From a virus (lineage: Duplodnaviria > Heunggongvirae > Uroviricota > Caudoviricetes): 64,000 nucleotides of DNA. Made by a program: the position numbers and the translations under genes. The notes below the pieces were generated by a model. That model did not search any database, had not been told where the DNA came from, and was given only the letters and a program-made list of their open reading frames with translations. Below, piece after piece: positions 4,437 to 41,286 of this stretch; positions within the stretch are counted from its first letter, which is position 1, and each line of letters starts with the position of its first letter. The DNA is taken from the IMG/VR virus record IMGVR_UViG_3300035184_001394, positions 1-64,000 of that record; one strand, 5' to 3'.

Positions 4437-5114
4437 TTAAATTTCTTCAAATAAAACGTTATTAATATATCTATCTTTAGCTTGTTCTGATATGCCCATA
4501 GCAAGTATAGATCTATGCAGGTGCTTATTCATCTTCTGATTTTCACAATATTTGTTAAGTTGAGTTTTAGTTGGTAAGGTAGTAATCATTTTAATATCAT
4601 TGCAAGAAGCCAAATAAGCCTTAATAAGGTTAGTAGATAAACAAATCAACTGTTCTAACTCATCACCATAAGTGATAGAACCAGCAGCAACCATGTTGTC
4701 TGAGAATATTTCAGTAGCCCATTCAGGTAAATCTCTTGGTTTATTCCATTTAATATCCTTAACAGACGCTTTAAACAGTTCGCATAATGGATGAACTTGA
4801 TCTTTTATAACAGGAGAAAAGTCAAAAAACGAACCACTTATTTTAGTTTTAGATGCAACTATATCAAAACCAAGAATAGGTAAGTTAACATTTTCTCTTG
4901 GAAATATATTGATATGTAGCAACCACATTCTACCATCGTTAATCGTTTTCAAATGACACTTTCTAATGTTATCACTACACCAGAAAGAATCAGTCCACCC
5001 ATCGAATTGCTGATCATGTTTTTCGTTTATAAACGGTTTTAAATGATTATTAAACGTTTCGCTAAGACTTGATGCAAATGTATCAAGTTTATCCCAGAGT
5101 GGATTGATATCCAT
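4437..5114 (-). CDS. ferredoxin-dependent bilin reductase (PebS/PcyA/PcyX family)
   Basis: WLLHINIFPRENVNLPILGFDIVASKTKISGSFFDFSPV matches the FDBR core (hhh.FP....d.P.fG.D.v.....i...hhD.sP). Start overlaps the heme oxygenase stop (ATGA). Confidence 0.7.
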   Translation of the reverse strand: MDINPLWDKLDTFASSLSETFNNHLKPFINEKHDQQFDGWTDSFWCSDNIRKCHLKTINDGRMWLLHINIFPRENVNLPILGFDIVASKTKISGSFFDFSPVIKDQVHPLCELFKASVKDIKWNKPRDLPEWATEIFSDNMVAAGSITYGDELEQLICLSTNLIKAYLASCNDIKMITTLPTKTQLNKYCENQKMNKHLHRSILAMGISEQAKDRYINNVLFEEI

Positions 5115-6577: not shown

Positions 6578-7189
6578 TTAATCAACTTTGGCTTTTTTCT
6601 TAGCTTCGCGTTTTTCTAATTTGCACGAACGTTTCTCTAGGCGCAGTAAAACTTCTTTACCATCCATCCACAAATCTTTATTATTAAGCATATCTTTGAT
6701 TTCTCTTTTTGTTAAAAAACCGCAGTAAACATCTCTTAATAATTTAGCTGACCAACAGCGTTCATGAATTATTTGACTATACATTTCTCCACCTTTACCA
6801 GAGGTTTTTCCAGCATAGTTGTGGAACATAAACATTGTATGACTAGATAATTCGAATACATCAGCACTCAAGAATATCATTGTTGCCGCTGACATACAAG
6901 CGCCTTCAACTGAAGCAATTACAGTAGCCCGACACTCGCGCAAAACTCGCATCATCTGTATAGCAGCAAGTAGATCACCACCACACGAGTTAATATGTAT
7001 ATGTACTGTATCAGCTTCACTGCAGTTTCTAATTATATTAAACCATTCGACGTAATATTCTGGAGTTTCTACTGGTCCTGATAAGTAAAAATCATGAACA
7101 ACATCAGTTGATCTGGAAGTAAAGAAATCCTTAGATTTGCTTGGCTGCAGTAAATCTAAGAAGTTATTATCAAATTTATTTTTTTTCAT
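6578..7189 (-). CDS. ClpP-like serine protease subunit
   Basis: INSCGGDLLAAIQMMRVL..ATVIASVEGACMSAATMIFLSA...MFMFHNYAG matches the ClpP G-G/S-M-A/H-Q-P regions. Confidence 0.65.
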   Translation of the reverse strand: MKKNKFDNNFLDLLQPSKSKDFFTSRSTDVVHDFYLSGPVETPEYYVEWFNIIRNCSEADTVHIHINSCGGDLLAAIQMMRVLRECRATVIASVEGACMSAATMIFLSADVFELSSHTMFMFHNYAGKTSGKGGEMYSQIIHERCWSAKLLRDVYCGFLTKREIKDMLNNKDLWMDGKEVLLRLEKRSCKLEKREAKKKAKVD

Positions 7190-18721: not shown

Positions 18722-20215
18722 TTAAATATCTATATTGTATATCTTTAATTCAAATTCTTCTTGACTATACATTTCAACTCTCTTCCTAAAATGTCTTAAA
18801 GTATAATTCTCTGAACTTTCTGTTCCAAGATTATCAGCAATATCGTATAGAGTTGCTTTGTCCGACCCGTTGCCTTTCCTGAGTGATCGACCAACAGATT
18901 GTAATACTTTAATCTCAGATTTAGAACCGGACGCAAATATAACATTATCAAGTCTGCGCAAGTTCACGCCAGTTGAGAATGTGCCGTATGAAGCAAGAAT
19001 ATTATGTTTCTTTTCAGGATCATTTTCAACTAAGTGCCTGATACGTTCACGTTCTTCACCACTCACACTACCATGAATAAAATGTAATACACGGCCTTCT
19101 TTCTGTAAAATTGGCTCTAATACTTTGCCATGCTTCTCGACTAAATCAAATAATATTAAATTGTTCTGACCTTCCAATGACCATAATAAGTTACGAATAA
19201 AGATATTACGTTTAGTATGATTATTTATGAATTCGCGTTCTGCCGGATATTTACGAGTTGGCTCTTTAATAGTTTTAAGAGCTGTTCTAAACTTTTTCTT
19301 TTCTTCCTTTGAATATTCAAGTACAATACCTTTGATTTTAAAGTCAGCAACCGTGCCATCGTCAATTAGATTCTTAGTAGTCACATATTTACGAGTAGAT
19401 CCAAATGAACCTTCTAATACAAGCCTATTAGTTTTAGACTCAGAAGATTTAAGCGTACCAGTGAATCCATGTCTATAACGACAATCAGTCATTTTTTCCA
19501 TAATCGTAGTCAAAGCTTTTGCTTGGAATAAATGGGCTTCATCGCCAAGTACAACACCAAACTGACTAAACCACTCTTTTGGCATTTTTTGTAATGATTG
19601 CCAAGTACTGATAACGATTGGAGCTCGAGTATTTTTCTCGACACCACCTTTAATTGTATAAATCAATTCAGACTTACAACCATAATCAACAAAATCACCC
19701 GCCATCTGGAATACTAACGAGACAGTCGGCACAATAATGAGTGTTCGTAATTGCTCAGTTTGGTAGTAATGTTGTTGCAATAGATATATAATTAATGATT
19801 TACCAGATGAAGTTGGAGATACGTTAAGCGAACGTCTATCTCTTATTGCATTAACAATATATTTGTTTTGATAATCTCTTGGTTGAAATTTAGACTTGAC
19901 TAGTTTAGCAATATCATATCCATAATCATCCGCGCATCTATCTTTATCTTGTAATTCAGACGGCAAATTAAGTTCGTATTCTCGAACCTCACAGAACTTT
20001 TTGAGATGGTTTAACAGTCCAACTAGAAGTAATGGCTTAAATGGAGAGTACATTCGTATAACACCATCCCACATCCGGGATTTGTATTTTGGTGAGAATT
20101 GATAGCCTTCTGGTTTGAAGGAGAAATAGTCAGAAAGTTCTTGCCGTACAGATGGATCAGCAGTCACTTTCATATTAACTTCATTTATATATTCGACATT
20201 AATTATGTCAGCCAT
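18722..20215 (-). CDS. uvsW: UvsW SF2 helicase
   Basis: FSFKPEGYQF, RDYQ, SPTSSGKS, LIIVPT, WFSQFG..LGDEAH, YGTFSTG, LQSVGR are collinear with T4 UvsW. Confidence 0.9.
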   Translation of the reverse strand: MADIINVEYINEVNMKVTADPSVRQELSDYFSFKPEGYQFSPKYKSRMWDGVIRMYSPFKPLLLVGLLNHLKKFCEVREYELNLPSELQDKDRCADDYGYDIAKLVKSKFQPRDYQNKYIVNAIRDRRSLNVSPTSSGKSLIIYLLQQHYYQTEQLRTLIIVPTVSLVFQMAGDFVDYGCKSELIYTIKGGVEKNTRAPIVISTWQSLQKMPKEWFSQFGVVLGDEAHLFQAKALTTIMEKMTDCRYRHGFTGTLKSSESKTNRLVLEGSFGSTRKYVTTKNLIDDGTVADFKIKGIVLEYSKEEKKKFRTALKTIKEPTRKYPAEREFINNHTKRNIFIRNLLWSLEGQNNLILFDLVEKHGKVLEPILQKEGRVLHFIHGSVSGEERERIRHLVENDPEKKHNILASYGTFSTGVNLRRLDNVIFASGSKSEIKVLQSVGRSLRKGNGSDKATLYDIADNLGTESSENYTLRHFRKRVEMYSQEEFELKIYNIDI

Positions 20216-20245
20216 GATATACCCAATATTATTTGTTATTGAATA

Positions 20246-20253
20246 TATTTATA
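20246..20253 (-). promoter_or_regulatory. T4-type late promoter (TATAAATA, minus strand) about 30 nt upstream of uvsW
   Basis: Forward tatttata. uvsW is late-transcribed in T4. Confidence 0.45.
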
Positions 20254-20404
20254 AAAATTAATCGAAGTCGTATATGGCTATTGGGTACGGGTTTTTGTCA
20301 CACTCCCATTCACCATTTCCACGATATGTGAAGACAAATCTATCACCACACCAGAACCTTGTTACTGTTTCACCTATTGTTCGTTTCATAATATAATTCC
20401 TAAA

Positions 20405-20752
20405 TTAATTATCACTAGTAATTCCTAATAAAATATCAACAGCTTTAAATTCAGACTCATTGCAACGATCATTAAGTAGTTTAATCTTAGCATTAAGTTC
20501 TTCATTTGCATTATCTAGATCATATTTAAGTTCATCGATTAAATCGTGAAGTCTTTTTATTTCGCGTCTTTGCTCAATTGCGTTGCTGATGTCATCTAAT
20601 AGTCTAAGATTAGGAATTGTATTAACGTAGTCCCATTCGTCATCTTCGAGTAGCATATATCCATTTGAAGTATACATGTAATATAAGTTATCATCGCCAA
20701 CGTGAGTAGGACGCGTAATATGTTGGCTTAACTCTGTGTTTTTGTTATCCAT
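20405..20752 (-). CDS. hypothetical coiled-coil protein (about 115 aa from internal Met with GGAG SD)
   Basis: ATGGATAA start overlaps the stop of the upstream gene. The longer ORF-track version overlaps it. Confidence 0.45.
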   Translation of the reverse strand: MDNKNTELSQHITRPTHVGDDNLYYMYTSNGYMLLEDDEWDYVNTIPNLRLLDDISNAIEQRREIKRLHDLIDELKYDLDNANEELNAKIKLLNDRCNESEFKAVDILLGITSDN

Positions 20753-21017
20753 TGCCTTTCTCCATAACATGTTGATACAAGAGTTTAAGATCACATAAAT
20801 CGTTTATATCTTCAATATCGTAACCCCATACAAGCGAGAAGTCTTCGATAAATTCTTCAAATGTTAACTCTGAATTGACTAGAGCATGCGGAACGATATC
20901 GCTTTTTGTGCAAAAATATCGATGTCTCTTAACTTTTACAGTAGCGTATGAAACAACTGTTTGACAGAATACGCTATCGTCAATAAATAATTGATTTATA
21001 TTCTCGGTAACTTTCAT
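20745..21017 (-). CDS. hypothetical protein (90 aa)
   Basis: Complete ORF preceded by leader (AATTGATAAAGGAATTAAATT ATG). Confidence 0.45.
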   Translation of the reverse strand: MKVTENINQLFIDDSVFCQTVVSYATVKVKRHRYFCTKSDIVPHALVNSELTFEEFIEDFSLVWGYDIEDINDLCDLKLLYQHVMEKGNG

Positions 21018-21071
21018 AATTTAATTCCTTTATCAATTTATTAGACTATTATAATCAAATCAAAATGTTAA

Positions 21072-21659
21072 CTATTCAATATAGCGAACATCATCTGAAT
21101 CTACTACTAATATTTGCGGTACCAGGCCAGCAACATTAGTGTTAATTTTCCACAAACCATCGCTCTTAAGTGTATTTTTGTCAAGAATTGCAAAGAATGA
21201 TTCGCTATTCTCAGTATTACTACAATTTAACACTAATTGATTATGTGTTACTGCAGTAATAGTAATAAAGACATAATCATCGTAAATGTATCCGTGAAAT
21301 TCATCGCCTATTACAATTGGTACATCGAGATAATTACTAGTACTAACTTCTTTTTGGTATACAAATTTTGTTTTATTAATTTGACTAAAATAAACTGGTG
21401 TGTTATTTTTGCAGACTTCTATAGAAATACTATCTAATTTAATTCTGTCTTGACCACATCTTCTAAATTCTTCATTGTCTTTAATAACACTCACATTATA
21501 ACCCCAACCAACTTCCTGTATGACTAATGTACCATCTTGATTACTTAGAACTCTCCAGTCGATGGTTTGTGATTTTCTTGTAGTTTTTACTAAGGAATTT
21601 ACTTTTAGATCAATTTCCTTAGTTTTAATTACATCAACTTTAGTATTTCGTACGAACAT
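21072..21659 (-). CDS. hypothetical protein, paralog A of a duplicated early gene (195 aa)
   Basis: MFVRN...SN..V.....R.....VLSN..G.LV.QEV......V..D......CG.D......I.I......P..FS......FVYQKEV...........GDE..GY..DD........TI.AV...QLVLN.......SFFA.LDK.....DG.WKI is shared with 22015-22611. Confidence 0.55.
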   Translation of the reverse strand: MFVRNTKVDVIKTKEIDLKVNSLVKTTRKSQTIDWRVLSNQDGTLVIQEVGWGYNVSVIKDNEEFRRCGQDRIKLDSISIEVCKNNTPVYFSQINKTKFVYQKEVSTSNYLDVPIVIGDEFHGYIYDDYVFITITAVTHNQLVLNCSNTENSESFFAILDKNTLKSDGLWKINTNVAGLVPQILVVDSDDVRYIE

Positions 21660-31609: not shown

Positions 31610-31638
31610 TTGACATTCCTTTTATTTTAATATATAAT
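31610..31638 (+). promoter_or_regulatory. early promoter (plus)
   Basis: TTGACA, 17 nt, TATAAT. Confidence 0.5.
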
Positions 31639-31681: not shown

Positions 31682-32101
31682 ATGAAATACGATAACGGTA
31701 AAACAGATTTATCATTGATACCACCAGAAGTCTTAGTTGACATTGCGTGTGTATTAGGCTTTGGTGCAAAGAAATATGGTAGGGATAATCACCGCTTTGA
31801 TGCTGGAGAAACTGAATGGAGTAGAGTATATGCTTCAGCCCAACGCCACTTGCATGATTTTTGGTCAGGTGAAGATTTTGACCCAGAATCTGGTCAGAAA
31901 CATATAACACACGCAATTACCCAATTGATTATTCTTGCAACTGCAATTAACGATGGCCATACGAATATGGATGACCGGTTTTTTACAAAATTAAAACAGT
32001 TAAGCACTACAGAAAAACCAAAACCCGACAGTCTCTTAGATACTAAAGCAACTAAACATGCACCCTATGTATATTTAAAGTCTCGGGAGATTATTGAATA
32101 A
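31682..32101 (+). CDS. dNTP pyrophosphohydrolase of the MazZ / dATP-dGTP diphosphohydrolase N-domain type (DUF5664-like)
   Basis: MKYDNGKTDLSLIPPEVLVDIACVLGFGAKKYGRDN...WSRVYASAQRHLHDFWSGEDFDPESGQKHITHAITQLIIL matches the family consensus (KYD.GK...LIPPEAL..LA.VLTFGA.KY...W....W.R...A..RHL..........D.ESG..HLAHA). Confidence 0.6.
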   Translation: MKYDNGKTDLSLIPPEVLVDIACVLGFGAKKYGRDNHRFDAGETEWSRVYASAQRHLHDFWSGEDFDPESGQKHITHAITQLIILATAINDGHTNMDDRFFTKLKQLSTTEKPKPDSLLDTKATKHAPYVYLKSREIIE

Positions 32102-32850
32102 TGATAGTTGAAGATATACGTAAATACTTTAAAGAAGAACTTGCTGCAGAACGTTTCACTATTGATAAAACTGGTGCTAAAACGATCGAGTTGTTAGGTG
32201 CTAGCTTTATTGCTGATGAACCTGCTATTTTTGGTATTCCTAATCAAGAATATATTGATGCTGAAATAAAATGGTACAATAGTTGTTCTACTAATATTAA
32301 TACATTAGAAAAAATTTATGGTAAGAAACCAGCTGCGTGGGCTTACTCAGCAAATTCTTATGGCGAAATCAATTCGAATTATGGTCATCTTTTGTTTGAA
32401 CCAAAGTACTATAATCAATTTGAAAATGCTGTAAAAGAACTAATCAATAACCCTGATAGTAGACGTGCTCAACTAACATACACTAGACCTTCTGTATGGG
32501 TTGATTTTAACGAAAGCGGCAAAAACGATTTCATATGTACTTTAGGTCAACTGTTTTATATACGTGATAATAAATTACATATGGTAAGCATGATGCGAAG
32601 CAACGACTCTTGGGCTGGTTATCGCAATGATTATGCTTGGGCTAAATATCTTATGGAACTCGCTGTTAACGAATACAATGTTGGATGTGAAAATACTCCT
32701 ATTGCTATTGGTAATCTGTATTGGCAAGTAGCCAATATGCACATATATGAAAGAAATTTCTATTTAGTTGATTATTATTCAAAAACAGGTAAATTTCATA
32801 TTTCTAAACCCGACTATGCTGCAAAATATCCGAATAGTCAATATAATTAA
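32101..32850 (+). CDS. 42: gp42 deoxycytidylate 5-hydroxymethyltransferase
   Basis: Nearly collinear with T4 gp42: VDKTGAKTIELLGASFIADEP, GEINSNYG, NPDSRRAQLTYTRPS, MRSNDSWAGYRNDYAW (Asp retained, so cytosine-specific), HIYERNFYLVDYY, HISK.DY..KY. Confidence 0.9.
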   Translation: MIVEDIRKYFKEELAAERFTIDKTGAKTIELLGASFIADEPAIFGIPNQEYIDAEIKWYNSCSTNINTLEKIYGKKPAAWAYSANSYGEINSNYGHLLFEPKYYNQFENAVKELINNPDSRRAQLTYTRPSVWVDFNESGKNDFICTLGQLFYIRDNKLHMVSMMRSNDSWAGYRNDYAWAKYLMELAVNEYNVGCENTPIAIGNLYWQVANMHIYERNFYLVDYYSKTGKFHISKPDYAAKYPNSQYN

Positions 32851-33367: not shown

Positions 33368-33730
33368 TTGGAAGATGATTTATTACCAACAATAAGTGCG
33401 GTTATATTACTACCAGAGAGTAGATCTGACGTAACAAGATATGTGTTGATTGGAGATTTTAAATATGCTGGATTTGAAGTTCCAAGTGGGTTTGTGACTG
33501 ACGGTTTGACTATACCAAGGATATTTTGGAGCATACTACCACCCATTCACAGATACTTTCCTGCAGCCATAATTCATGATTATCTATTAACACAAGTATC
33601 TCGCGTAGAAGCTGACAGAGAGTTTAAGATTGTACTGAAAAAGCTAAATATATCTAGAGTGCGTAGATTTTTAATGGCTGCCGCAGTAAGATTATATTCA
33701 ACAATACTAAAAATATTAAATAAAAGTTGA
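33368..33730 (+). CDS. DUF1353 family protein (TTG start)
   Basis: FVTDGLTIPRIFWSILPP...AAIIHDYLL matches the DUF1353 signature. AGGAGA SD 8 nt before TTG. Confidence 0.6.
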   Translation: MEDDLLPTISAVILLPESRSDVTRYVLIGDFKYAGFEVPSGFVTDGLTIPRIFWSILPPIHRYFPAAIIHDYLLTQVSRVEADREFKIVLKKLNISRVRRFLMAAAVRLYSTILKILNKS

Positions 33731-33755
33731 CATTATAATCAACTTGTGATATAGT
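33727..33755 (+). promoter_or_regulatory. early promoter (plus) with an unusually long (about 80 nt) leader before the MIPS gene
   Basis: TTGACA, 17 nt, TATAGT. Confidence 0.45.
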
Positions 33756-33837
33756 AGTATCAATTAAACAACTGTGGGCTACTCTGCTTAAACCCAGCCA
33801 ATCCCACATTAATAAACTGAAATAATAGAGGAAGAAA

Positions 33838-35118
33838 ATGTCTAAAATTAATATCGCTATTGCCGGCGTCGGTAATTGCTCATCAGCACTTATTCAAGGT
33901 GTAGAATACTATAAAGAAAATCCAGAAGATACCATAGGTCTTATGTTTGAAGACATCGGTGGTTTTTCTGCTAAAAACTTTAATTTTGTTGTTGGATTTG
34001 ATGTCGATGCCCGTAAAGTTGGCCAACGATTAAATAACTCAATCTATGCTAAACCAAATTGTAACATGGAAGTATATCCTCCAAGTCATAATTTGACTTG
34101 TATAGCATCTAAATCGACAGTATACAGATCGCCAACATTTGATGGTATAGCACCTCACATGCACGATTTACATCCTGATATATCCTTCGTAGAAGATACA
34201 GAAACTCTGGCTATCACGGCTAATGAATACATTCAAATTCTTAAAGATAACAAAGTTGATGTATTACTTAACTATATGCCAGTTGGTTCTGAAACAGCAG
34301 CTCGTTGGCACATTGAAAATGCTATTCGCGCAGGTGTCCATATTGTTAACTGTATGCCAACATATATATCTACTAAAGATGCAATGGAACTTGAGAGACT
34401 TGCTATCGAACATGGCGTAACAGTTGTTGGTTCTGACATGCGTTCTGATTACGGCGCGTCACGTTTATCTGAGGTGTTACAAGGTTCAATTATGGATTCT
34501 GGATTGTTGGTTACTCAACACATCCAAGAAAACAAAGCTTGTGGAACTACTCAAGGTGATATGCGCCGTACTGGTCGTACTGCAAATACTGACTTCTTAA
34601 ACATGGCAACTAAAGATCGTTTAAAAAATAAACATATCTCTAAAGAAAATGTTTTAAATGGTCAAGCTGCTGTACGTGGTAAAGATATTGCTGGTCTTAC
34701 AATGTATGCTGGTCCGTCACTTACAGTTTTCCAAAAACCAGGTGATGAATACATTGGTTCAGATAATAAGATTGCTAATATTGATATGGTATTCTGGGGA
34801 TGGGCTGGGGCTCGCTATGAATTGACTGCTCGTTTATCTGTTCAAGATTCTCCTAATAGTGCTGGAATTGTATTTGATGCAGTTCGTTTTTGCAAAGTTG
34901 CTGCTGAGATGGGTATTGTTGGTTACTTACGTGGTCCATCGGCACACTCTCAAAAGACACCACCAACTCAGCTAAAAACTGCTGATTCAAAATTCGAATG
35001 CGAAGCATTAGCTCGTAGGATTTTAACTGATCTTACTCGTCCGCAACTCGCCGAAAATTACCCACAAGTTGAAGATTTGCTTTATACATTCCAAGCTGAT
35101 ACTTCAGATTACGAATAA
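33838..35118 (+). CDS. myo-inositol-1-phosphate synthase (MIPS/Ino1 family, bacterial-actinobacterial type)
   Basis: Collinear with mycobacterial Ino1, recalled from memory. INIAIAGVGNCSSALIQGVEYYK matches VAIVGVGNCASSLVQGVEYYY. KVDVLLNYMPVGSE matches KVDVLVSYLPVGSE. LSVQDSPNSAGIVFDAVRFCKVA matches [23 protein letters not shown]. Confidence 0.85.
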   Translation: MSKINIAIAGVGNCSSALIQGVEYYKENPEDTIGLMFEDIGGFSAKNFNFVVGFDVDARKVGQRLNNSIYAKPNCNMEVYPPSHNLTCIASKSTVYRSPTFDGIAPHMHDLHPDISFVEDTETLAITANEYIQILKDNKVDVLLNYMPVGSETAARWHIENAIRAGVHIVNCMPTYISTKDAMELERLAIEHGVTVVGSDMRSDYGASRLSEVLQGSIMDSGLLVTQHIQENKACGTTQGDMRRTGRTANTDFLNMATKDRLKNKHISKENVLNGQAAVRGKDIAGLTMYAGPSLTVFQKPGDEYIGSDNKIANIDMVFWGWAGARYELTARLSVQDSPNSAGIVFDAVRFCKVAAEMGIVGYLRGPSAHSQKTPPTQLKTADSKFECEALARRILTDLTRPQLAENYPQVEDLLYTFQADTSDYE

Positions 35119-35132
35119 AGGAAAAATATATT

Positions 35133-35510
35133 ATGAATACTTTTGATATTGATGGTGTGATTTATATGGGTAAAGACCATGACGGCGTTTACCCTGGGCC
35201 GAACGACTTGATTATTACTGGTCGTTCTATTGAAGAAAAACCAGAAACTATTAGGATGCTGCAGCAGAAAGGGATTAATAATAAAGTTTATTTTAATCCC
35301 TTACCATTTAAACAAAAGACCAGAGAAAGTTCTGGTCACCATAAAGCAGACATCATTTCAGCTCTTATTACATTAGGTTGTCCTATAGATATCCACTTTG
35401 AAGATGATCCAATACAAGCTGATATAATCAAAAAGGTTACATCAATTCACGTTGTATTATTAAACCACAACTTAACTGAAAAGGAGAATATGCGCCATGG
35501 GGGATACTGA
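35133..35510 (+). CDS. small HAD-superfamily phosphatase (125 aa)
   Basis: N-terminal FDIDGVIY (HAD motif I DxDGV) and C-terminal IHFEDD (motif IV). Confidence 0.5.
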   Translation: MNTFDIDGVIYMGKDHDGVYPGPNDLIITGRSIEEKPETIRMLQQKGINNKVYFNPLPFKQKTRESSGHHKADIISALITLGCPIDIHFEDDPIQADIIKKVTSIHVVLLNHNLTEKENMRHGGY

Positions 35511-36240
35511 AATGTATAAAGGCTATAAAATTAGAACAGGCCCGGGTATTGATCGTGATATGATTCGCGATTCACTAAAACATTATAGCCACTTCTCACT
35601 TGATAAAAAATCAGTAGTGCTTGATCTTGGTTCTAATATTGGTGGATTTACTAGGATGGCAAACGAAAAAGAAGTTAAACAATACATAGCAGTAGAACCA
35701 GATCCAGAAAATATGGAATTAACAACTGTTAATTCCATAGACGGAAGTAATAACTTATATTTGTTGGGTGTAGCCTCTATTTCTGAATCAGAACATTTAA
35801 CGTTTTTTCAATCTAATGCTGTAAGATCAAAATGCTCTGGAACTATTAATAGTAAAAGTCAAACAGCTACTAGAAAGAATGGCACTGCATACGATGTTGT
35901 TAATTATAATGTGTATGAACTGTTGGAAAAATATAAACCTACTCATGTCAAATGTGATATAGAAGGAGCAGAAATTGATTGGTTAGCTGATTGCGAAGGT
36001 ATATTTCCAGACTATATTCAGGAGTTGGCGTTTGAGTTGCATGGTAGAGCTGGTATAGTAGAACTCGAGCGATATTACGATAATATAATTGAACATTTTG
36101 AAATAGTTAGTTTTGTTCCATCTGTTGGGTTTAAAGGCAGTTTTAATAAAAAAGACGCTGTACTGTATGAAAAAGTTGGATATACAACAGAAGGTACTTT
36201 GTGGAGCATAGACTTATTCTTGCGTAGAAGAGTAAAATAA
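35497..36240 (+). CDS. FkbM-family SAM-dependent methyltransferase
   Basis: VVLDLGSNIGGFT is the FkbM motif (D.GAN.G.F). Confidence 0.65.
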   Translation: MGDTEMYKGYKIRTGPGIDRDMIRDSLKHYSHFSLDKKSVVLDLGSNIGGFTRMANEKEVKQYIAVEPDPENMELTTVNSIDGSNNLYLLGVASISESEHLTFFQSNAVRSKCSGTINSKSQTATRKNGTAYDVVNYNVYELLEKYKPTHVKCDIEGAEIDWLADCEGIFPDYIQELAFELHGRAGIVELERYYDNIIEHFEIVSFVPSVGFKGSFNKKDAVLYEKVGYTTEGTLWSIDLFLRRRVK

Positions 36241-37406
36241 TGATTGATGGTACACATAAATCATACGAAGTACCTAAAGGATTTAAATCTGCTGACTCAA
36301 ATTATCCACTGGATAAATATTTTGATTTGTGCGACGTTGAGAAATTTCTTGACTTTAAATATTTTGTATGCGAAGTTAATAAGAGATCGGAATGGCAAAG
36401 GGGTCTTATTACAACATACGATTATAAAGAGTATGCTCTTAATCCAAATACAGAATACTTTCATCCGATGATTACATACGACGATCGTATGGTTTATATC
36501 GCTGAAAATATAGTAGGATTATCAAGCGACACTTTATCTCTACACAATAAGATTGGTAACACAATTATATCTCACTTCTATGGAGCTAGAGGTATTCACC
36601 AGATTGCCACTCGTAATAATGACGTTAAAACTGCTCATGTTGATTTTGAAAACTATTTTACTACTGACGAGCGCTCTCGTATACGAGAAAATTTAAAACT
36701 TTCAAAAATTGCTGGTTTGCCTATATATGGTTCTACTGAATTGCGTACTTCTCTCTGGGGTGCTGCAAACAAATATCAACAAAGCCGTTTTAATGTTACA
36801 ACCGAAGAAGAAAGAAAGCACCCTGGAAATATTATGGATTGGGTAGCTGGTTTATGCGAAGATGGAACTTTTGATCGTTTAATTAGTTGTAATTCTATTA
36901 AAGAAGCATTTAATGAACTCACTTCTAACGCTGGTATTGGAAGTTATTATGGATTCCATTGTGCTACTTCAAATTCAGTAAACCCTGAGTTGAACTGGAC
37001 TAATGATGATAACTTCGTTAAACCTGGACCTGGTGCTCAATATACTTTAAAGTTGATGTTTCCAAACGCAACAAATAAGTTAATTAACAGTGGCGATCTT
37101 GTTATATGGTTTAGACACAATCAAAAGTTCTTTGGTTTTGGCGATATTGAAATCCATGAATCTGCTCATAATATTTTAAATTTTGAAGGCAAAAAGATTC
37201 TTGAAAAAGATCAAACCGAAATGATGACTTATGGTTCTGAGGTTGCTATGTGCCAATATGGTATTTTTTGTAAGTTGCGCGAAGATAAAAAAGCTTGCGA
37301 TAGACGTAAAGTTGCCCGTATAGGAGATAGAAACATTGAAAAAATGCTAAATATGGCTGAGCAAGAACAAATTTCTCAAGCAGCATTTCAACAATTTTTT
37401 ACATGA
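36240..37406 (+). CDS. hypothetical protein (388 aa) within the modification module
   Basis: Translationally coupled to FkbM (ATGA). No motif recognised. Confidence 0.5.
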   Translation: MIDGTHKSYEVPKGFKSADSNYPLDKYFDLCDVEKFLDFKYFVCEVNKRSEWQRGLITTYDYKEYALNPNTEYFHPMITYDDRMVYIAENIVGLSSDTLSLHNKIGNTIISHFYGARGIHQIATRNNDVKTAHVDFENYFTTDERSRIRENLKLSKIAGLPIYGSTELRTSLWGAANKYQQSRFNVTTEEERKHPGNIMDWVAGLCEDGTFDRLISCNSIKEAFNELTSNAGIGSYYGFHCATSNSVNPELNWTNDDNFVKPGPGAQYTLKLMFPNATNKLINSGDLVIWFRHNQKFFGFGDIEIHESAHNILNFEGKKILEKDQTEMMTYGSEVAMCQYGIFCKLREDKKACDRRKVARIGDRNIEKMLNMAEQEQISQAAFQQFFT

Positions 37407-37413
37407 GGTAAAT

Positions 37414-38517
37414 ATGAAAACAATTATAGCAGCACCATTCATCCCTATGTCGTTTCAGATAACGAGTCATAGGGCAGCACAAGGAATTATATATGCTGAT
37501 TTGCTTAAACACTATCACACAGACGATATTTCAGTAAGCTTATCTAGACCAAGCGTACAAGGTCCCGAAGCTAAAGAATCAAACAAAACAGAAGATTTTA
37601 ACGAATATGATAGATTATATATCTATCATGGTAATGATCGTAAAGCAGACGCTGGTGATCTAAACTTTTTTGGTGGAACTCGAAATTTCCCTCATGCTTA
37701 CAATATTAGAAATATTTCTAAATTTAAAGGTGAAGTTTATTCTATTGGATATGATATGCCTGATTATGCTACTATGTTAGAGCACAAGATTACTGGCCAT
37801 GAAAAGCGAGATGGTACACTTGACACAATGGTTCCTGAATTTCTCGAAGTTGATATTGATAATTTAAGAGCAATGCAAGAAAGAGCGATCACAATTATAC
37901 CACAACATCCTAGTTGGAGCGGTTTAGTGATCGGTGATAGTCATGCTATTTGTATGTATCGTGAAGGATATAATGTTAATTCAGTTCCGTTTAAAACTTT
38001 GTATGGAGCCTTAGAATTAGGCTTAAAAAGTTTCATAAATAAAAATGACATTAAGGATATTGAATGTTACTTTGGTAACATTGATATACGTCATCACATT
38101 TGTAGACAGGACGATCATAAACAAGCTATTAGAGATCTTGTTGATCGTTATGTCGACCAAGTCGATTCTTTGGATATGGAAAGTAAAGTGATCTATGAAC
38201 TATTACCTATCGAAAACGAACGCAGAAATCTTCCAAAAAGCGGATGGTATCTTGGTGAGAAATTTCATGGTACGTGGGCTGAGCGTAACGCAGCAAGACT
38301 TTACTTTAAAGAATACTCAATGAAAAGAGTTCAAGGAACGAGTGTTGAATTTCGTGAATGGCTCACTCCATCGTATTATAATGAATTAGGTGAACTTGAT
38401 TTTAAAGCTATGGAGCGACCAAAATCAGTTCATTTATCTCGTGAATACTATCCTCATTGGCAAGGACTTGAATACAATAAAATTAATAAAACAACAATTG
38501 AGGATTTTTTTCAATGA
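37414..38517 (+). CDS. T4 beta-glucosyltransferase-like DNA glycosyltransferase (GT-B)
   Basis: MKTIIA... and NEYDRLYIYHG...DLNFFGGTRNF parallel T4 beta-gt MKIAIINMG... and NDYDRLIVVNSSINFFGGK. Similar length (367 vs 351 aa). Confidence 0.5.
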   Translation: MKTIIAAPFIPMSFQITSHRAAQGIIYADLLKHYHTDDISVSLSRPSVQGPEAKESNKTEDFNEYDRLYIYHGNDRKADAGDLNFFGGTRNFPHAYNIRNISKFKGEVYSIGYDMPDYATMLEHKITGHEKRDGTLDTMVPEFLEVDIDNLRAMQERAITIIPQHPSWSGLVIGDSHAICMYREGYNVNSVPFKTLYGALELGLKSFINKNDIKDIECYFGNIDIRHHICRQDDHKQAIRDLVDRYVDQVDSLDMESKVIYELLPIENERRNLPKSGWYLGEKFHGTWAERNAARLYFKEYSMKRVQGTSVEFREWLTPSYYNELGELDFKAMERPKSVHLSREYYPHWQGLEYNKINKTTIEDFFQ

Positions 38518-39740
38518 AGCACGCAACGATCATACCACTTATAGGAGGCGAAGCACTAGCATCTACTGAAGTATTTGGAACTAAACCAGAATACATTTTG
38601 TCTTATAAAGGATTTGAAAACAATGAAAAACACTTACTAAACTATTGGAATAACGAAGTACCCTATCATGTACTTGACGATGAGAACAGTATTGCTCCTA
38701 AAAATATTAATGAGAAAGTTGATGTTATATCGAGTGTCTGTCCTTGTGCTGGATTAAGTCAATATCATTCTAAACACGGAGCTGAAAATCAAAATAACCA
38801 ATGGATGGAGAAAACAGCCAAGCATATTCTAGAAACCGTACAACCGAGTGTATTTTGGGGAGAAAATGCTCCTGCTCTTGTTGGTAAGATCGGTGAGTTT
38901 ATGTTAACTAAACTACGTAAAATTGGCCTCGATAATGGATACTCTATGGGTCTATATCTTACTAAGAATATTAAACATGGTATTCCACAATTTCGTAAAC
39001 GCACTTTCTATTTCTTCTGGAAGAAAAGCGAGTTTGGTGATACTGCACCAATGCTTAAATTTATTAACAAAGAACACACAAAAATTGAAGATGTAATTAT
39101 GAGCGCTACTGGTAGTACACAGTTAGAACCAATTAATTCTAAAATTCCAAGCAAAGACGATCCTTACTATAGATATCTTCTTGAAGTAATTCATGGTGGT
39201 ATTACGCATAGAGAATATTTTGAGTTATTAAAAACTAAAAATGTTCGAGGCAACGATGTAGAATCTATTATTATAAATTCAGGTCACGATTATATGATGG
39301 TTGGTGAATGGATGGAAAAAAATGGATACGACAGAGAAGTTCCAAAATGTGAACGAAAATATCATAAGCTAAAAGATGGTGGCAATATAATGCGACGTGG
39401 CACTATTATTCCTAAAGATTATATTGGAGCTTTTGTTGGTCATTATCCGACAGTTCTTACTCATCCATATGAAGATCGTTATATTAATTATCGCGAAGCA
39501 ATGACTATTATGGGATTACCACAAGATTACGAATTGTTAGACCCTAAAAAATCTGCTAATCATATTTGTCAGAATGTTCCATTACAAACTGCTAAAGATA
39601 TGGTGTTAGAAATTAAAGCTGTTTTCGAAGGAAAGCGCCAATTTTCTGATACTGATTTTTTATTACAATCTAACATAAACGAAACATCCAGAACTTTGAA
39701 TATACCAGATAAAGAGCAAAGTTTAGAATCATTTTTCTGA
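38514..39740 (+). CDS. C5-cytosine methyltransferase-like protein
   Basis: Motif I IIPLIGGEA, motif IV SSVCPCAGLS (Pro-Cys), motif VI FWGENAPAL (ENV), motif VIII QFRKR, motif X REAMTIMGLPQDY. Last gene of the module. Confidence 0.65.
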   Translation: MKHATIIPLIGGEALASTEVFGTKPEYILSYKGFENNEKHLLNYWNNEVPYHVLDDENSIAPKNINEKVDVISSVCPCAGLSQYHSKHGAENQNNQWMEKTAKHILETVQPSVFWGENAPALVGKIGEFMLTKLRKIGLDNGYSMGLYLTKNIKHGIPQFRKRTFYFFWKKSEFGDTAPMLKFINKEHTKIEDVIMSATGSTQLEPINSKIPSKDDPYYRYLLEVIHGGITHREYFELLKTKNVRGNDVESIIINSGHDYMMVGEWMEKNGYDREVPKCERKYHKLKDGGNIMRRGTIIPKDYIGAFVGHYPTVLTHPYEDRYINYREAMTIMGLPQDYELLDPKKSANHICQNVPLQTAKDMVLEIKAVFEGKRQFSDTDFLLQSNINETSRTLNIPDKEQSLESFF

Positions 39741-39748
39741 AATGATTG

Positions 39749-39777
39749 TTGACATTTAAACACAAACATGTTATAAT
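39749..39777 (+). promoter_or_regulatory. early promoter (plus) upstream of dexA
   Basis: GTTGACATTT, 17 nt, TATAAT. Confidence 0.5.
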
Positions 39778-39805: not shown

Positions 39806-40438
39806 ATGAAAAAAGAATTATTAATAGATTTCGAAACATTAGGAATAAATCCTGAAAATTGCGTAGTACTCGACTGCTCGATTATTATCTTCGACAGAGA
39901 GAGATTCACATCTGATAAACCGTACACAGTAGCGGATATTACTGAAACTAAAACATTTAAAATATCTGTTACTGATCAGGTTAACAATTACAATTATGCT
40001 GTTGAAAACAGTGTTATTGAATTTTGGTCTAAACAAGATAAAGAAGTGCGAGCAAAAATTAAGCCGCTACCAACTGATCTTACTGTTAAGGAATTTACTG
40101 ATCAGTTTCTCAACTTAGTTTCTCAGCACAAAATTAGTTATTGGTGGTCTCGTGGAAACACGTTTGATCCACCTATTCTAACTAGAATTTTTGATGATCA
40201 AGGTAAGAAAAATGAATTAAATAAGAATTTAAAATATTGGGCAGTAAGAGATATGCGCACGTTTATTGACGCAAAACTCGATTTCCCGAAAGAAAATGGT
40301 TTTTCTCCTTTTGAAGATGAAGTAAAATGGGGGAAAATATTTAAAAAGCATGATAGCTCTTGGGATGTTTTAGCTGATGTTTTAAGATTACAAGCGATCG
40401 CGAGAGCCGAAGATGATTTGGAACAAGTGAAATTATGA
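39806..40438 (+). CDS. dexA: DexA exonuclease A (DEDD 3'-5' exonuclease)
   Basis: LLIDFETLG (Exo I), WSRGNTFDPPIL matches T4 CRGMSFDFPIL, and WAVRDMRTFIDA. Confidence 0.8.
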   Translation: MKKELLIDFETLGINPENCVVLDCSIIIFDRERFTSDKPYTVADITETKTFKISVTDQVNNYNYAVENSVIEFWSKQDKEVRAKIKPLPTDLTVKEFTDQFLNLVSQHKISYWWSRGNTFDPPILTRIFDDQGKKNELNKNLKYWAVRDMRTFIDAKLDFPKENGFSPFEDEVKWGKIFKKHDSSWDVLADVLRLQAIARAEDDLEQVKL

Positions 40439-41286
40439 AGATAGAAGCGACAATTGAACAATTAAGAGGAGCATCACTTTTTATTGGCGCACCAATGTAT
40501 GGAGGTAATTGCTCTGGTTTATTCACTAAATCTTGTACTGACTTATCTTCAATATGCGCGCTTAACGGAATTAAATTACAATACTATTTCTTATTCAACG
40601 AAAGTTTAGTTCAAAGAGCGCGAAATTACGTTACTGACGAATTTATGCGTTCTGGTTGTACTCATCTAATGTTTATAGACTCAGACATTGGTTTCGATGC
40701 TAGAGATGTTCTACACTTATTAAGCCTTCAGATATTAGATCCCAAGTATGATGTAATAACTGGACCTTATCCTAAGAAAACAATAGCTTGGGAAAAAGTT
40801 AGTAAAGCAGCTAAACTCGGCCATGGCGCAGAAAACCCCTTTGAATTAGAGAAATTTACAGCTGATTTCGTATTCAACCCAGAAGACAATAAAAATAGTT
40901 TTAATCTCGGTGAACCAATTAAAGTTAAAGAAGCAGGAACTGGTTTCATGTTAATTCCTCGCGTAACTCTTGAAAAATATCAAGAAGCTTATCCTGAAAT
41001 GAATTACAAACCAGACCACTTGCGATCTGAATCTTTTGACGGAGCTCGTAATATTACAGCATTTTTTGATTGTATTATAGACCCTAAGACGAAACGTTAT
41101 TTGTCTGAAGATTATTTCTTTTGTCATAAGACTCGTGAAGCTGGGATGAGTGTTTGGATGTGCCCTTGGATGCAAATCAACCATGTTGGTTCTTATATAT
41201 TTAGAGGCAATATGGCTGCGATTACTCAGTTGGGTGTTACTGCAACAGCAGACAATTCTGGTCAAAAGAAGAATTATAAAAAATAA
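40435..41286 (+). CDS. putative GT-A-type glycosyltransferase (DxD-like LMFIDSDIGF)
   Basis: A hydrophobic stretch followed by DSD, typical of GT-A DXD. Otherwise unknown. Confidence 0.35.
   Translation: MKIEATIEQLRGASLFIGAPMYGGNCSGLFTKSCTDLSSICALNGIKLQYYFLFNESLVQRARNYVTDEFMRSGCTHLMFIDSDIGFDARDVLHLLSLQILDPKYDVITGPYPKKTIAWEKVSKAAKLGHGAENPFELEKFTADFVFNPEDNKNSFNLGEPIKVKEAGTGFMLIPRVTLEKYQEAYPEMNYKPDHLRSESFDGARNITAFFDCIIDPKTKRYLSEDYFFCHKTREAGMSVWMCPWMQINHVGSYIFRGNMAAITQLGVTATADNSGQKKNYKK

Follow-up and report, generated by a model that had tools for sequence, protein, structure and literature searches.

Thymidine hypermodification in phage DNA begins with a hydroxymethylase of the thymidylate synthase (TS) family, after which a P-loop kinase phosphorylates the 5-CH2OH group in DNA, a DNA-glycosylase-like transferase swaps the phosphate for an amine, and further enzymes tailor the product (PMC8989533, PMC11472151). 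The clusters of phages M6, PaMx11, ViI, SP10 and PhiW-14 combine a dUMP hydroxymethylase, a 5-hydroxymethyldeoxyuridine (5-hmdU) DNA kinase, an aGPT-Pplase or amino-acid:DNA transferase, and tailoring enzymes. HMUDK and aGPT-Pplase were reportedly defined by Iyer et al. in 2013, and to our knowledge the described decorations of hydroxymethyl-pyrimidines are all either sugars, transferred from nucleoside diphosphate (NDP) sugars, or amines, added after phosphorylation. Here we analyze a 64,000-nucleotide stretch of DNA from a virus of the class Caudoviricetes (positions 1 to 64,000 of IMG/VR record IMGVR_UViG_3300035184_001394), hereafter the window, in which six genes (g1 to g6, positions 33838-39740) follow a gene 42 orthologue (gp42) in a T4-like phage of ~33% G+C. 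We propose that this region specifies a post-replicative hypermodification pathway for 5-hydroxymethylcytosine (5hmC) that attaches a cyclitol rather than a sugar, a reading that we judge plausible while stopping a little short of calling it probable. An earlier reading made from the letters of the window alone (the sequence-only reading) had suggested that 5hmC is decorated with something other than plain glucose by a GT-B glycosyltransferase; a substituent of the cyclitol type stays the best reading, whereas glycosyl transfer by a GT-B enzyme is not supported.

Like the thymidine clusters, the locus uses a TS-family hydroxymethylase to supply a hydroxymethyl-pyrimidine and groups tailoring enzymes with DNA-acting ones, and its predicted logic is likewise to activate the 5-CH2OH group and then to substitute it (PMC8989533). 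It differs in that the base is cytosine, as indicated by an Asp specificity residue, and not uracil; in that the cassette lacks both a P-loop kinase and a PF18724 transferase; in that the likely activating enzyme is a chimera (g5) of the N-terminal domain of a beta-glucosyltransferase (beta-GT) with an SGNH domain; and in that the co-substrate comes from a MIPS-family enzyme and a HAD phosphatase, as a cyclitol, instead of from amino acids or polyamines. With T4 beta-GT (PF09198), g5 shares a location beside gp42, a homologous N-terminal domain and a predicted target, the 5hmC hydroxyl in DNA, whereas an SGNH fold takes the place of the UDP-glucose-binding Rossmann domain at the C terminus and the equivalent of Asp100 is not strictly conserved. 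The arabinosyl-5-hydroxycytosine clusters of RB69 and DLP3 also bring together, in a T4-like phage, a TS homologue, a small HAD-type sugar-phosphate phosphatase, sugar enzymes and DNA transferases, and their substituent is likewise made by phage-encoded carbohydrate enzymes (PMC13326640). Their TS, however, has Asn at ThyA position 169 and makes 5-hydroxy-dCMP, where the window protein has the Asp of the hydroxymethyl type, and they attach the substituent by a GT-B enzyme from an NDP-sugar, whereas the cassette described here has neither a nucleotidyltransferase nor a GT-B enzyme. Synthesis by MIPS followed by a phosphatase is also the pattern of the inositol-3-phosphate pathways of bacteria (mycothiol, phosphatidylinositol, di-myo-inositol phosphate). 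There, inositol-3-phosphate itself is coupled and only then dephosphorylated; their acceptors are sugars or lipids, and coupling is by GT-B or CDP-alcohol transferases, neither of which is found here. The proposed system is best classed as a hydroxymethyl-pyrimidine hypermodification, a kind already known, with its novelty in the enzyme architecture and the predicted class of substituent.

The fold and family assignments, the synteny, the fusions, and the precursor and cyclitol steps described below rest on tool results. The gp42 orthologue (32101-32850, + strand), a dCMP hydroxymethylase, matches the structure of T4 dCMP hydroxymethylase (1b49) with an E-value of 6.6e-71 (phmmer), and it keeps both the cytosine-specific Asp pointed out in the sequence-only reading (RNDYAW) and the catalytic Cys (DFICT). 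Residue criteria separating hydroxymethyl- from hydroxy-dCMP synthases were taken from PMC13326640. All four diagnostic residues of a T4-type dCMP hydroxymethylase, T4 D145, C148, D171 and D179, are retained and are invariant in an alignment of gp42/TS homologues; D145 corresponds to ThyA L143 (here acidic, admitting water), D171 to ThyA D169, and D179 to ThyA N177. Some phage TS homologues were shown in 2026 to make 5-hydroxy-dCMP, and those carry Asn at ThyA D169 (PMC13326640); at that position the window gp42 has Asp (MRSND), and the same Asp/Asp, hydroxymethyl-cytosine type is found in gp42 of Aeromonas phage 44RR and in every TS-like gene located near a related cassette. Because the diagnostic residues are all kept, the window phage is predicted to produce 5-hydroxymethyl-dCMP. 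Upstream of gp42 lie a MazG-like protein and a PF18909 MazZ-like deoxynucleoside triphosphate (dNTP) pyrophosphatase, the latter sharing with gp42 a promoter at 31610 that scores 12/12, and cd follows gp42. A tblastn search of the window found no homologue of T4 alpha-gt, as had been supposed.

To assess how widely the region is conserved, IMG/VR was searched with g4 (293 loci found, 80 kept), g5 (534 found, 80 kept) and MIPS (527 found, with 50 loci kept that have at least 3.2 kb downstream), and all three seeds recovered the same cassette of g5, MIPS, HAD and g4, with or without the FkbM gene. Around g4, MIPS occurs in 77/80 loci, HAD in 76/80, g5 in 73/80, FkbM in 37/80 and g6 in 8/80. The MIPS-seeded loci contain HAD in 50/50, g4 in 48/50, g5 in 47/50, FkbM in 9/50 and g6 in 43/50, and the g5-seeded loci contain MIPS in 32/80, HAD in 33/80, g4 in 39/80, FkbM in 4/80 and g6 in 63/80 overall; HAD adjoins MIPS in 76/80, 50/50 and 33/80 loci for the g4, MIPS and g5 seeds, respectively. 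A gp42 gene is present in 36 of the 37 g5-seeded loci that reach at least 6 kb upstream of g5. The expectation of a conserved module beside a hydroxymethyl-dCMP synthase is thus borne out by the three seeds and by the position of gp42, whereas the six genes do not form a fixed unit: the portable core is g5, MIPS, HAD and g4, FkbM is optional, and g6 belongs to one clade. Two phage lineages carry the cassette, which sits among DNA polymerase, NrdAB, MazG- and MazZ-like dNTP pyrophosphatases and gp45. The T4-like clade has the order mazG ... gp42-cd-[MIPS-HAD-(FkbM)-g4]-g5-g6-(exo)-g8-gp45-gp44, with g6 directly 3' of g5 in 60/72 g5-seeded loci having at least 1.3 kb downstream; the second lineage has the order [MazZ-like]-g5-MIPS-HAD-FkbM-g4-[MazG-like]-DNA polymerase and lacks g6. 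By megablast the region has no match among 50,697 phage records, and the complete cassette occurs in none of those 50,697 phage genomes.

Gene fusions link these proteins further. FkbM is fused to g4 in two homologues (P0174 and P0191), FkbM, g4 and g5 form a single protein of 981 amino acids (aa) in P0307, and ORF233c of Aeromonas phages 31, 44RR and 25 (795 aa) joins g5 to g4. These three fusion types (FkbM::g4, FkbM::g4::g5 and g5::g4) argue that the DNA-acting parts work together, and, with the synteny, they uphold the coupling of cyclitol genes and an O-methyltransferase to DNA-base-modifying enzymes that the sequence-only reading had supposed. In relatives of the window phage, the MIPS-HAD-g4 block is swapped for other gene sets in the same slot between cd and g5, which in some is empty. 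One such set encodes a UDG-like 134-aa protein, a 384-aa protein, a 330-aa protein and a PALP-like (pyridoxal phosphate-type) protein of ~292 aa (L143, 6615-10004); another encodes an Asp/Arg-hydroxylase-like cupin with a methyltransferase-like protein (L004, 8829-9991), and loci L127, L131, L133, L146 and L168 are also among those in which the block is replaced. An exchangeable block of this type is the pattern of a hypermodification island, with g5 as the constant enzyme working on what gp42 makes and the exchangeable part setting the attached group; the alternative sets may encode other 5hmC substituents. The close relative L004 also carries an aldolase-like gene and an NCS1 permease of the cytosine/purine/uracil type at 19355-21107, ~8 kb 3' of g5.

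The product of g5 (37414-38517, + strand, 367 aa) has a beta-GT-like domain at residues ~1-165 and an SGNH esterase/acyltransferase domain at residues ~166-367. It has no Pfam match (including PF09198) and no sequence match in the PDB, and its family, 646 representatives at 50% identity, has no Pfam model. A profile of g5 aligned to a profile of 30 beta-GT homologues with 96.9% probability and E 1.6e-10 (hhalign; g5 21-123, beta-GT 20-109), so that the YDRL and NFFGG resemblance to T4 beta-GT, on which the sequence-only reading had based a bgt-like assignment, reflects real homology over the N-terminal ~100 residues. The beta-GT invariants Asn70 and Gly73-Gly74 align with N84 and G87-G88, which are invariant in g5. 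We take this domain to be the acceptor or DNA-binding side of beta-GT, in which Asn70 presumably fills the space vacated by the flipped base. The likeness stops there. The predicted structure is confident (pLDDT 91.4) and gives the C-terminal half an SGNH/GDSL fold whose nearest structural neighbors are acetyl-esterases and O-acetyltransferases, and Ser (GDSH), Gly, Asn (GNID) and His of the SGNH signature do not vary across 47 homologues. The second Rossmann domain, which binds UDP-glucose (R191, R195, R269, E272), is missing. A GT-B fold in the predicted structure had been named beforehand as the point on which the bgt-like assignment would turn, and g5 as a whole protein does not have it; since the UDP-glucose domain is absent and an SGNH domain stands in its place, g5 is no glycosyltransferase. 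Several homologues of 680-790 aa (P0327, P0348, P0354, P0369, P0382 and P0420) are extended by long regions that match nothing in Pfam and do not resemble g4, and that represent further fusion partners.

The 388-aa product of g4 (36240-37406, + strand), earlier listed as an unknown protein, belongs to PF18723 (HMUDK_hel, with the clade-1 aGPT-Pplase-like proteins): it passes the Pfam gathering score and has the DNA-glycosylase-like, all-helical fold. In PaMx11 this family is a stand-alone gene (gp50) beside the kinase, inside the thymidine hypermodification cluster. The association with a kinase is not seen here, as neither the operon nor the conserved cassette contains a P-loop 5-hmdU DNA kinase and the partner hydroxymethylase is of the cytosine type. 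Structurally g4 resembles QNG1, and its other neighbors are DNA-acting base flippers; g4 is predicted to act on a flipped-out modified base. Profile comparisons (hhalign) gave no signal between g4 and the 384-aa or 330-aa proteins of the alternative cassette, nor between g4 and the C-terminal halves of the long g5 fusions P0354 and P0327. A bacterial stand-alone homologue (P0240; L171, 9001-10032) lies in the genome of Crocinitomix algicola among genes of defence-island type (SLFN/AlbA_2 ATPase, NUDIX, PLD-helicase, integrase), with no MIPS, HAD or g5, and may be a host-side enzyme recognizing modified bases.

Cyclitol synthesis is assigned to the first two genes. The product of g1 (33838-35118, + strand, 426 aa) matches Ino1 of Mycobacterium tuberculosis (Mtb; PDB 1gr0) with E 2.7e-48 as a single sequence and E 1.4e-107 with a family profile, exceeds the PF01658 cut-off of 27 with 32.8 bits, and keeps the catalytic motifs SK..SK, D-x-K and DSPNSAG. 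The MIPS family named in the sequence-only reading is confirmed by 1gr0. At the equivalog level, g1 scores 198.6 bits against TIGR03450, for which the equivalog cut-off is 638, and the Lys of GDDxKS is replaced by Arg in 69/74 phage MIPS homologues. The second-best solved relative is 6k96, a five-membered cyclitol-phosphate synthase (E 2e-27; profile E 4.7e-62), in which that position is Ala. The window protein also carries a 17-aa insertion (34534-34584, g1 residues 233-249) that replaces the VGG of the N-V-G-G-N-x-D motif. Judged by homology, g1 is a cyclitol-phosphate synthase; inositol-3-phosphate is the probable product, and only probable because of the sub-equivalog score and the Arg in place of Lys. 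The product of g2 (35133-35510, + strand, 125 aa) is a small HAD-superfamily phosphatase with the motifs DxDGV, T, K and EDD present and conserved, of which DxDGV and EDD had been noticed earlier (D5, D7, G8, V9, T29, K71, D91 and D92, covering motifs I-IV, are invariant in 22 sequences). It matches phrog_415, the phosphatase part of polynucleotide kinase, with E 2.9e-6; as neither Pfam nor the PDB sequences gave a match and the family profile has no significant PDB match, its HAD membership rests on the motifs and phrog_415.

Two genes of the methyltransferase type complete the operon. The FkbM-type O-methyltransferase identified earlier in g3 (35497-36240, + strand, 247 aa; S-adenosylmethionine-dependent) scores 57.5 bits against TIGR01444, with a curated cut-off of 37.7, also matches PF05050, and conserves the cofactor-binding motif LDLGSNIGGF; in the cassette it is an optional tailoring step. 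The product of g6 (38514-39740, + strand, 408 aa) has the C5-cytosine methyltransferase fold (PF00145, E 5e-21, 75.9 bits with a cut-off of 22), and its family profile matches M.HaeIII (E 2e-8) and M.HhaI (E 8e-7) in an alignment that covers motifs IV-X only. P77-C78, E117-N118-A119, Q159/R161/R163 and, in motif X, Q353-N354-V355 are invariant, so the PC and QxRxR (QFRKR) motifs of the sequence-only reading are present, while ENA stands where that reading gave ENV. At the N terminus the cofactor motif is atypical, with IIPLIGGE (P8, L9, G11 and G12 invariant) instead of FxGxG, and the N-terminal region has no alignment to solved methyltransferases, the PDB profile matches beginning at motif IV. 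Its N37-E38 pair presumably resembles N39-E40 of M.HhaI. Since C5 of the modified base is already substituted, g6 would not methylate that position. Carboxymethylation of the CmoX type (PMC12783734) was weighed for g6, and no CmoA homologue stood out in the gene annotations, in which no aimed search was made. FkbM and g6 are largely alternative across loci (37/80 and 8/80 in the g4-seeded set, 9/50 and 43/50 in the MIPS-seeded set), and the window is among the minority with both.

These assignments suggest a pathway in six steps, for which we infer the reaction order, the leaving group, the ether linkage, the role of g6 and the identity of the final base. From homology and its diagnostic residues, gp42 would make 5-hydroxymethyl-dCMP, which would then be polymerized into DNA. 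MIPS would form a cyclitol phosphate, most probably inositol-3-phosphate, by cyclizing a hexose-6-phosphate, and HAD would dephosphorylate the product before or after coupling; inositol-3-phosphate may be the actual nucleophile with its phosphate removed later, an order suggested because the bacterial inositol-3-phosphate pathways run that way. The beta-GT-like domain of g5 would dock on 5hmC in DNA, and the SGNH Ser/His site would act on the 5-CH2OH group, most likely by esterification (e.g. acetylation) that creates a good leaving group. An ester is proposed as the activated form because the SGNH site is acetyl-esterase/transferase-like. With the flipped-out base held by g4, a cyclitol hydroxyl would displace the leaving group to give an ether-linked inosityl-methylcytosine, the cyclitol of which FkbM would O-methylate. 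In the last step g6 may assist the substitution by Cys-C6 covalent catalysis, or may methylate residual cytosines. Covalent catalysis of this type was also invoked by the authors of the PaMx11 gp46 study (PMC11472151). New coupling steps are proposed because the thymidine-type logic is present but the kinase and the glycosyltransferase are both absent.

Several observations weigh against this pathway. In g5 the position that corresponds to the catalytic Asp100 of beta-GT is just 72% conserved, and cytoplasmic SGNH enzymes are mostly esterases. We know of no enzyme that joins inositol to a hydroxymethyl-pyrimidine. The cassette encodes no acyl donor and no kinase, though in the analogous thymidine pathways the group displaced is a phosphate added by a kinase, and most clade-B loci have no TS-like gene within 10 kb (one is present in 22/80, g4-seeded). 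The g4 family gave no hhalign signal with PaMx11 gp46, a characterized transferase, so the link between them is structural only, and the PF18723 protein of M6, gp55, is dispensable in vitro (PMC8989533). MIPS and HAD also occur in Ralstonia phage RP13, Stenotrophomonas phage Moby and a few metagenomic loci that lack g4 and g5, which means that cyclitol synthesis there is not tied to g4 and g5, and many relatives have g5 and g6 with no MIPS, HAD or g4. The last two distributions, together with the presence of MIPS in Caulobacter phage Cr30, would fit two functions standing side by side, with g5 (with or without g6 and g4) adding a small substituent, for instance an O-acyl ester, and with MIPS, HAD and FkbM making free inositol or O-methyl-inositol for the cell, e.g. 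as an osmolyte or a membrane or redox precursor, and no cyclitol on DNA. O-methyl-inositols are compatible solutes, and the acetyl-esterase and O-acetyltransferase neighbors of the g5 SGNH domain suit such an arrangement. We regard it as unlikely, because g4 is almost always accompanied by MIPS (77/80) and HAD (76/80), close phage MIPS genes are almost always accompanied by g4 (48/50) and g5 (47/50), and FkbM is physically fused to g4 and to g4 plus g5. Even the MIPS-HAD pair of Moby sits inside a DNA-modification cluster, the FolE/QueC/DpdA/QueE genes for 7-deazaguanine (L002, 8207-13621), an arrangement that hints at a possible use of the cyclitol on deazaguanine too.

The target and the attached group could also differ from those of the preferred 5hmC-cyclitol pathway. 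Were g4 and g5 to modify 5-hydroxymethyl-dCMP or -dCTP, or a tRNA base, with the cyclitol as co-substrate, then the dNTP pyrophosphatases and nucleotide-metabolism genes flanking the cassette, the thymidylate-kinase-like gene that follows g5 in locus L008 and the resemblance of g4 to QNG1 would find a ready place. This seems to us quite improbable, given that g5 retains the invariant Asn and Gly-Gly of the beta-GT N-terminal domain, to which we ascribe a DNA-side role. The remaining neighbors of g4 are DNA-acting base flippers, a gp46-DNA complex of PaMx11 has been solved (PMC11472151), and the characterized hydroxymethyl-pyrimidine hypermodifications of this enzyme type are all post-replicative (PMC8989533, PMC13326640). 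There is likewise a small chance that the group attached to 5hmC is not inositol, if the MIPS homologue makes another cyclitol phosphate (five-membered, as does Ari2) or if the cyclitol is a mere intermediate carrier. The rank of 6k96 as second-best solved relative (E 2e-27, profile E 4.7e-62), the Arg found in 69/74 phage enzymes where 6k96 has Ala, the score far below the Ino1 equivalog cut-off and the insertion that interrupts the NVGGN motif of the window protein all point in that direction; against this, g1 is much closer to Mtb Ino1 (E 1.4e-107) than to 6k96 (4.7e-62), and its remaining catalytic Lys and Asp motifs agree with Ino1.

Cultured relatives offer a route to the 5hmC-cyclitol pathway. 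Aeromonas phages 44RR, 31 and 25 have genes 42 and 56 and no glucosyltransferase, and a 2010 review left the modification of their hydroxymethyl-dCMP open (PMC2993671). These phages have the g5::g4 fusion ORF233c and no MIPS, and the fusion gene follows a phage-encoded, sugar-type Na+/solute symporter of the YidK/SGLT type; in phage 31 the symporter (PF00474, best NCBIfam match YidK-type) lies directly 5' of ORF233c (L003, 6408-10388). This would fit import of the co-substrate instead of its synthesis. The locus thus supplies a candidate answer to the question, open since 2010, of whether and how hydroxymethyl-dCMP is decorated in phages that are positive for gene 42 and negative for glucosyltransferase, such as Aeromonas 44RR, 31 and 25 (PMC2993671), and the hypothesis is directly testable because these phages are cultured. 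A bolder form, which we consider possible though rather doubtful, is that hundreds of uncultured phages, T4-like and other aquatic ones, replace cytosine by 5-(inosityl-oxymethyl)cytosine through the two-step chemistry of g5 and g4, with a transporter-dependent form in Aeromonas 44RR, 31 and 25 and an O-methylated base in the window phage.

Phage DNA hypermodifications decide the outcome of restriction, CRISPR and glycosylase-based defence, and they have yielded tools such as T4 beta-GT and the 5hmC mapping enzymes. If the proposal is correct, joining a cyclitol with neither a glycosyltransferase nor a kinase would represent both a new class of substituent and a new activation chemistry. The substituent would be a carbocyclic pseudo-sugar held by an ether and not a glycosidic bond, and glycosidases that expose glucosyl-5hmC to host 5hmC glycosylases could not strip it. 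A recent preprint reports that hosts make 5hmC accessible to the glycosylase Brig3 by means of the de-glucosylating enzyme BapA (PMC13160076), against which an ether-linked carbocycle would be resistant. The cassette is widespread, with hundreds of IMG/VR loci, and the g4 and g5 families are large and unannotated, so that an assigned function would annotate many metagenomic phage genomes. Full-text literature searches returned nothing relevant on inositol, MIPS or SGNH proteins with phage DNA modification, an earlier mention in the founding bioinformatic paper being possible.

As originally listed, the six open reading frames (ORFs) all lie on the + strand, head to tail across 33838-39740. The translational coupling proposed for g3-g4 and g5-g6 agrees with overlaps of 1 nt and 4 nt (ATGA), respectively, and g2 and g3 overlap too, by 14 nt. 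The predicted early promoter is also found: a sigma-70-type element (TTGACA-17-TATAGT with a TG extension, 11/12; 33727-33755, + strand) lies ~75 nt ahead of the g1 start. As the next strong + strand promoter is at 39749, directly behind g6, the six genes are predicted to form one early transcription unit (33727-39740). Seven matches of 11-12/12 to TTGACA-N17-TATAAT (29688, 29789, 31610, 32854, 33727, 39749 and 41303) are all intergenic, on the + strand and in the direction of the genes, and look like a strong early promoter set defining transcription units; weak matches, taken together, are no more numerous than in shuffled sequences. The 75-nt leader of g1 has no significant fold (z -0.87), and an Rfam scan of the window gave no match.

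Downstream of the operon, g8 (40435-41286, + strand) encodes a GT2/GT-A-like protein (phrog_1574, weak PF13506), with homologues in some cyanophages, in Caulobacter phages and in phages like Sinorhizobium phiM12. A role as the glycosyltransferase that the cassette lacks was weighed and rejected, since g8 keeps the same position before gp45 in phages that lack the cassette, such as Stenotrophomonas phage DLP_6. Elsewhere the window encodes the T4-type genes gp32, gp59, DNA polymerase, gp46/47, gp55, UvsW, gp39/52, gp45 and gp44. A UvsX-like recombinase is divided between two ORFs on the - strand, 1299-2204 (301 aa, N-terminal part) and 703-1245 (180 aa, C-terminal part), which could reflect a frameshift, an intervening element or a gene that is split. 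Also on the - strand, amid replication genes, are an auxiliary gene resembling ferredoxin oxidoreductases (phrog_7278; 4437-5114) and one for a ClpP-like ATP-dependent protease (6578-7189).

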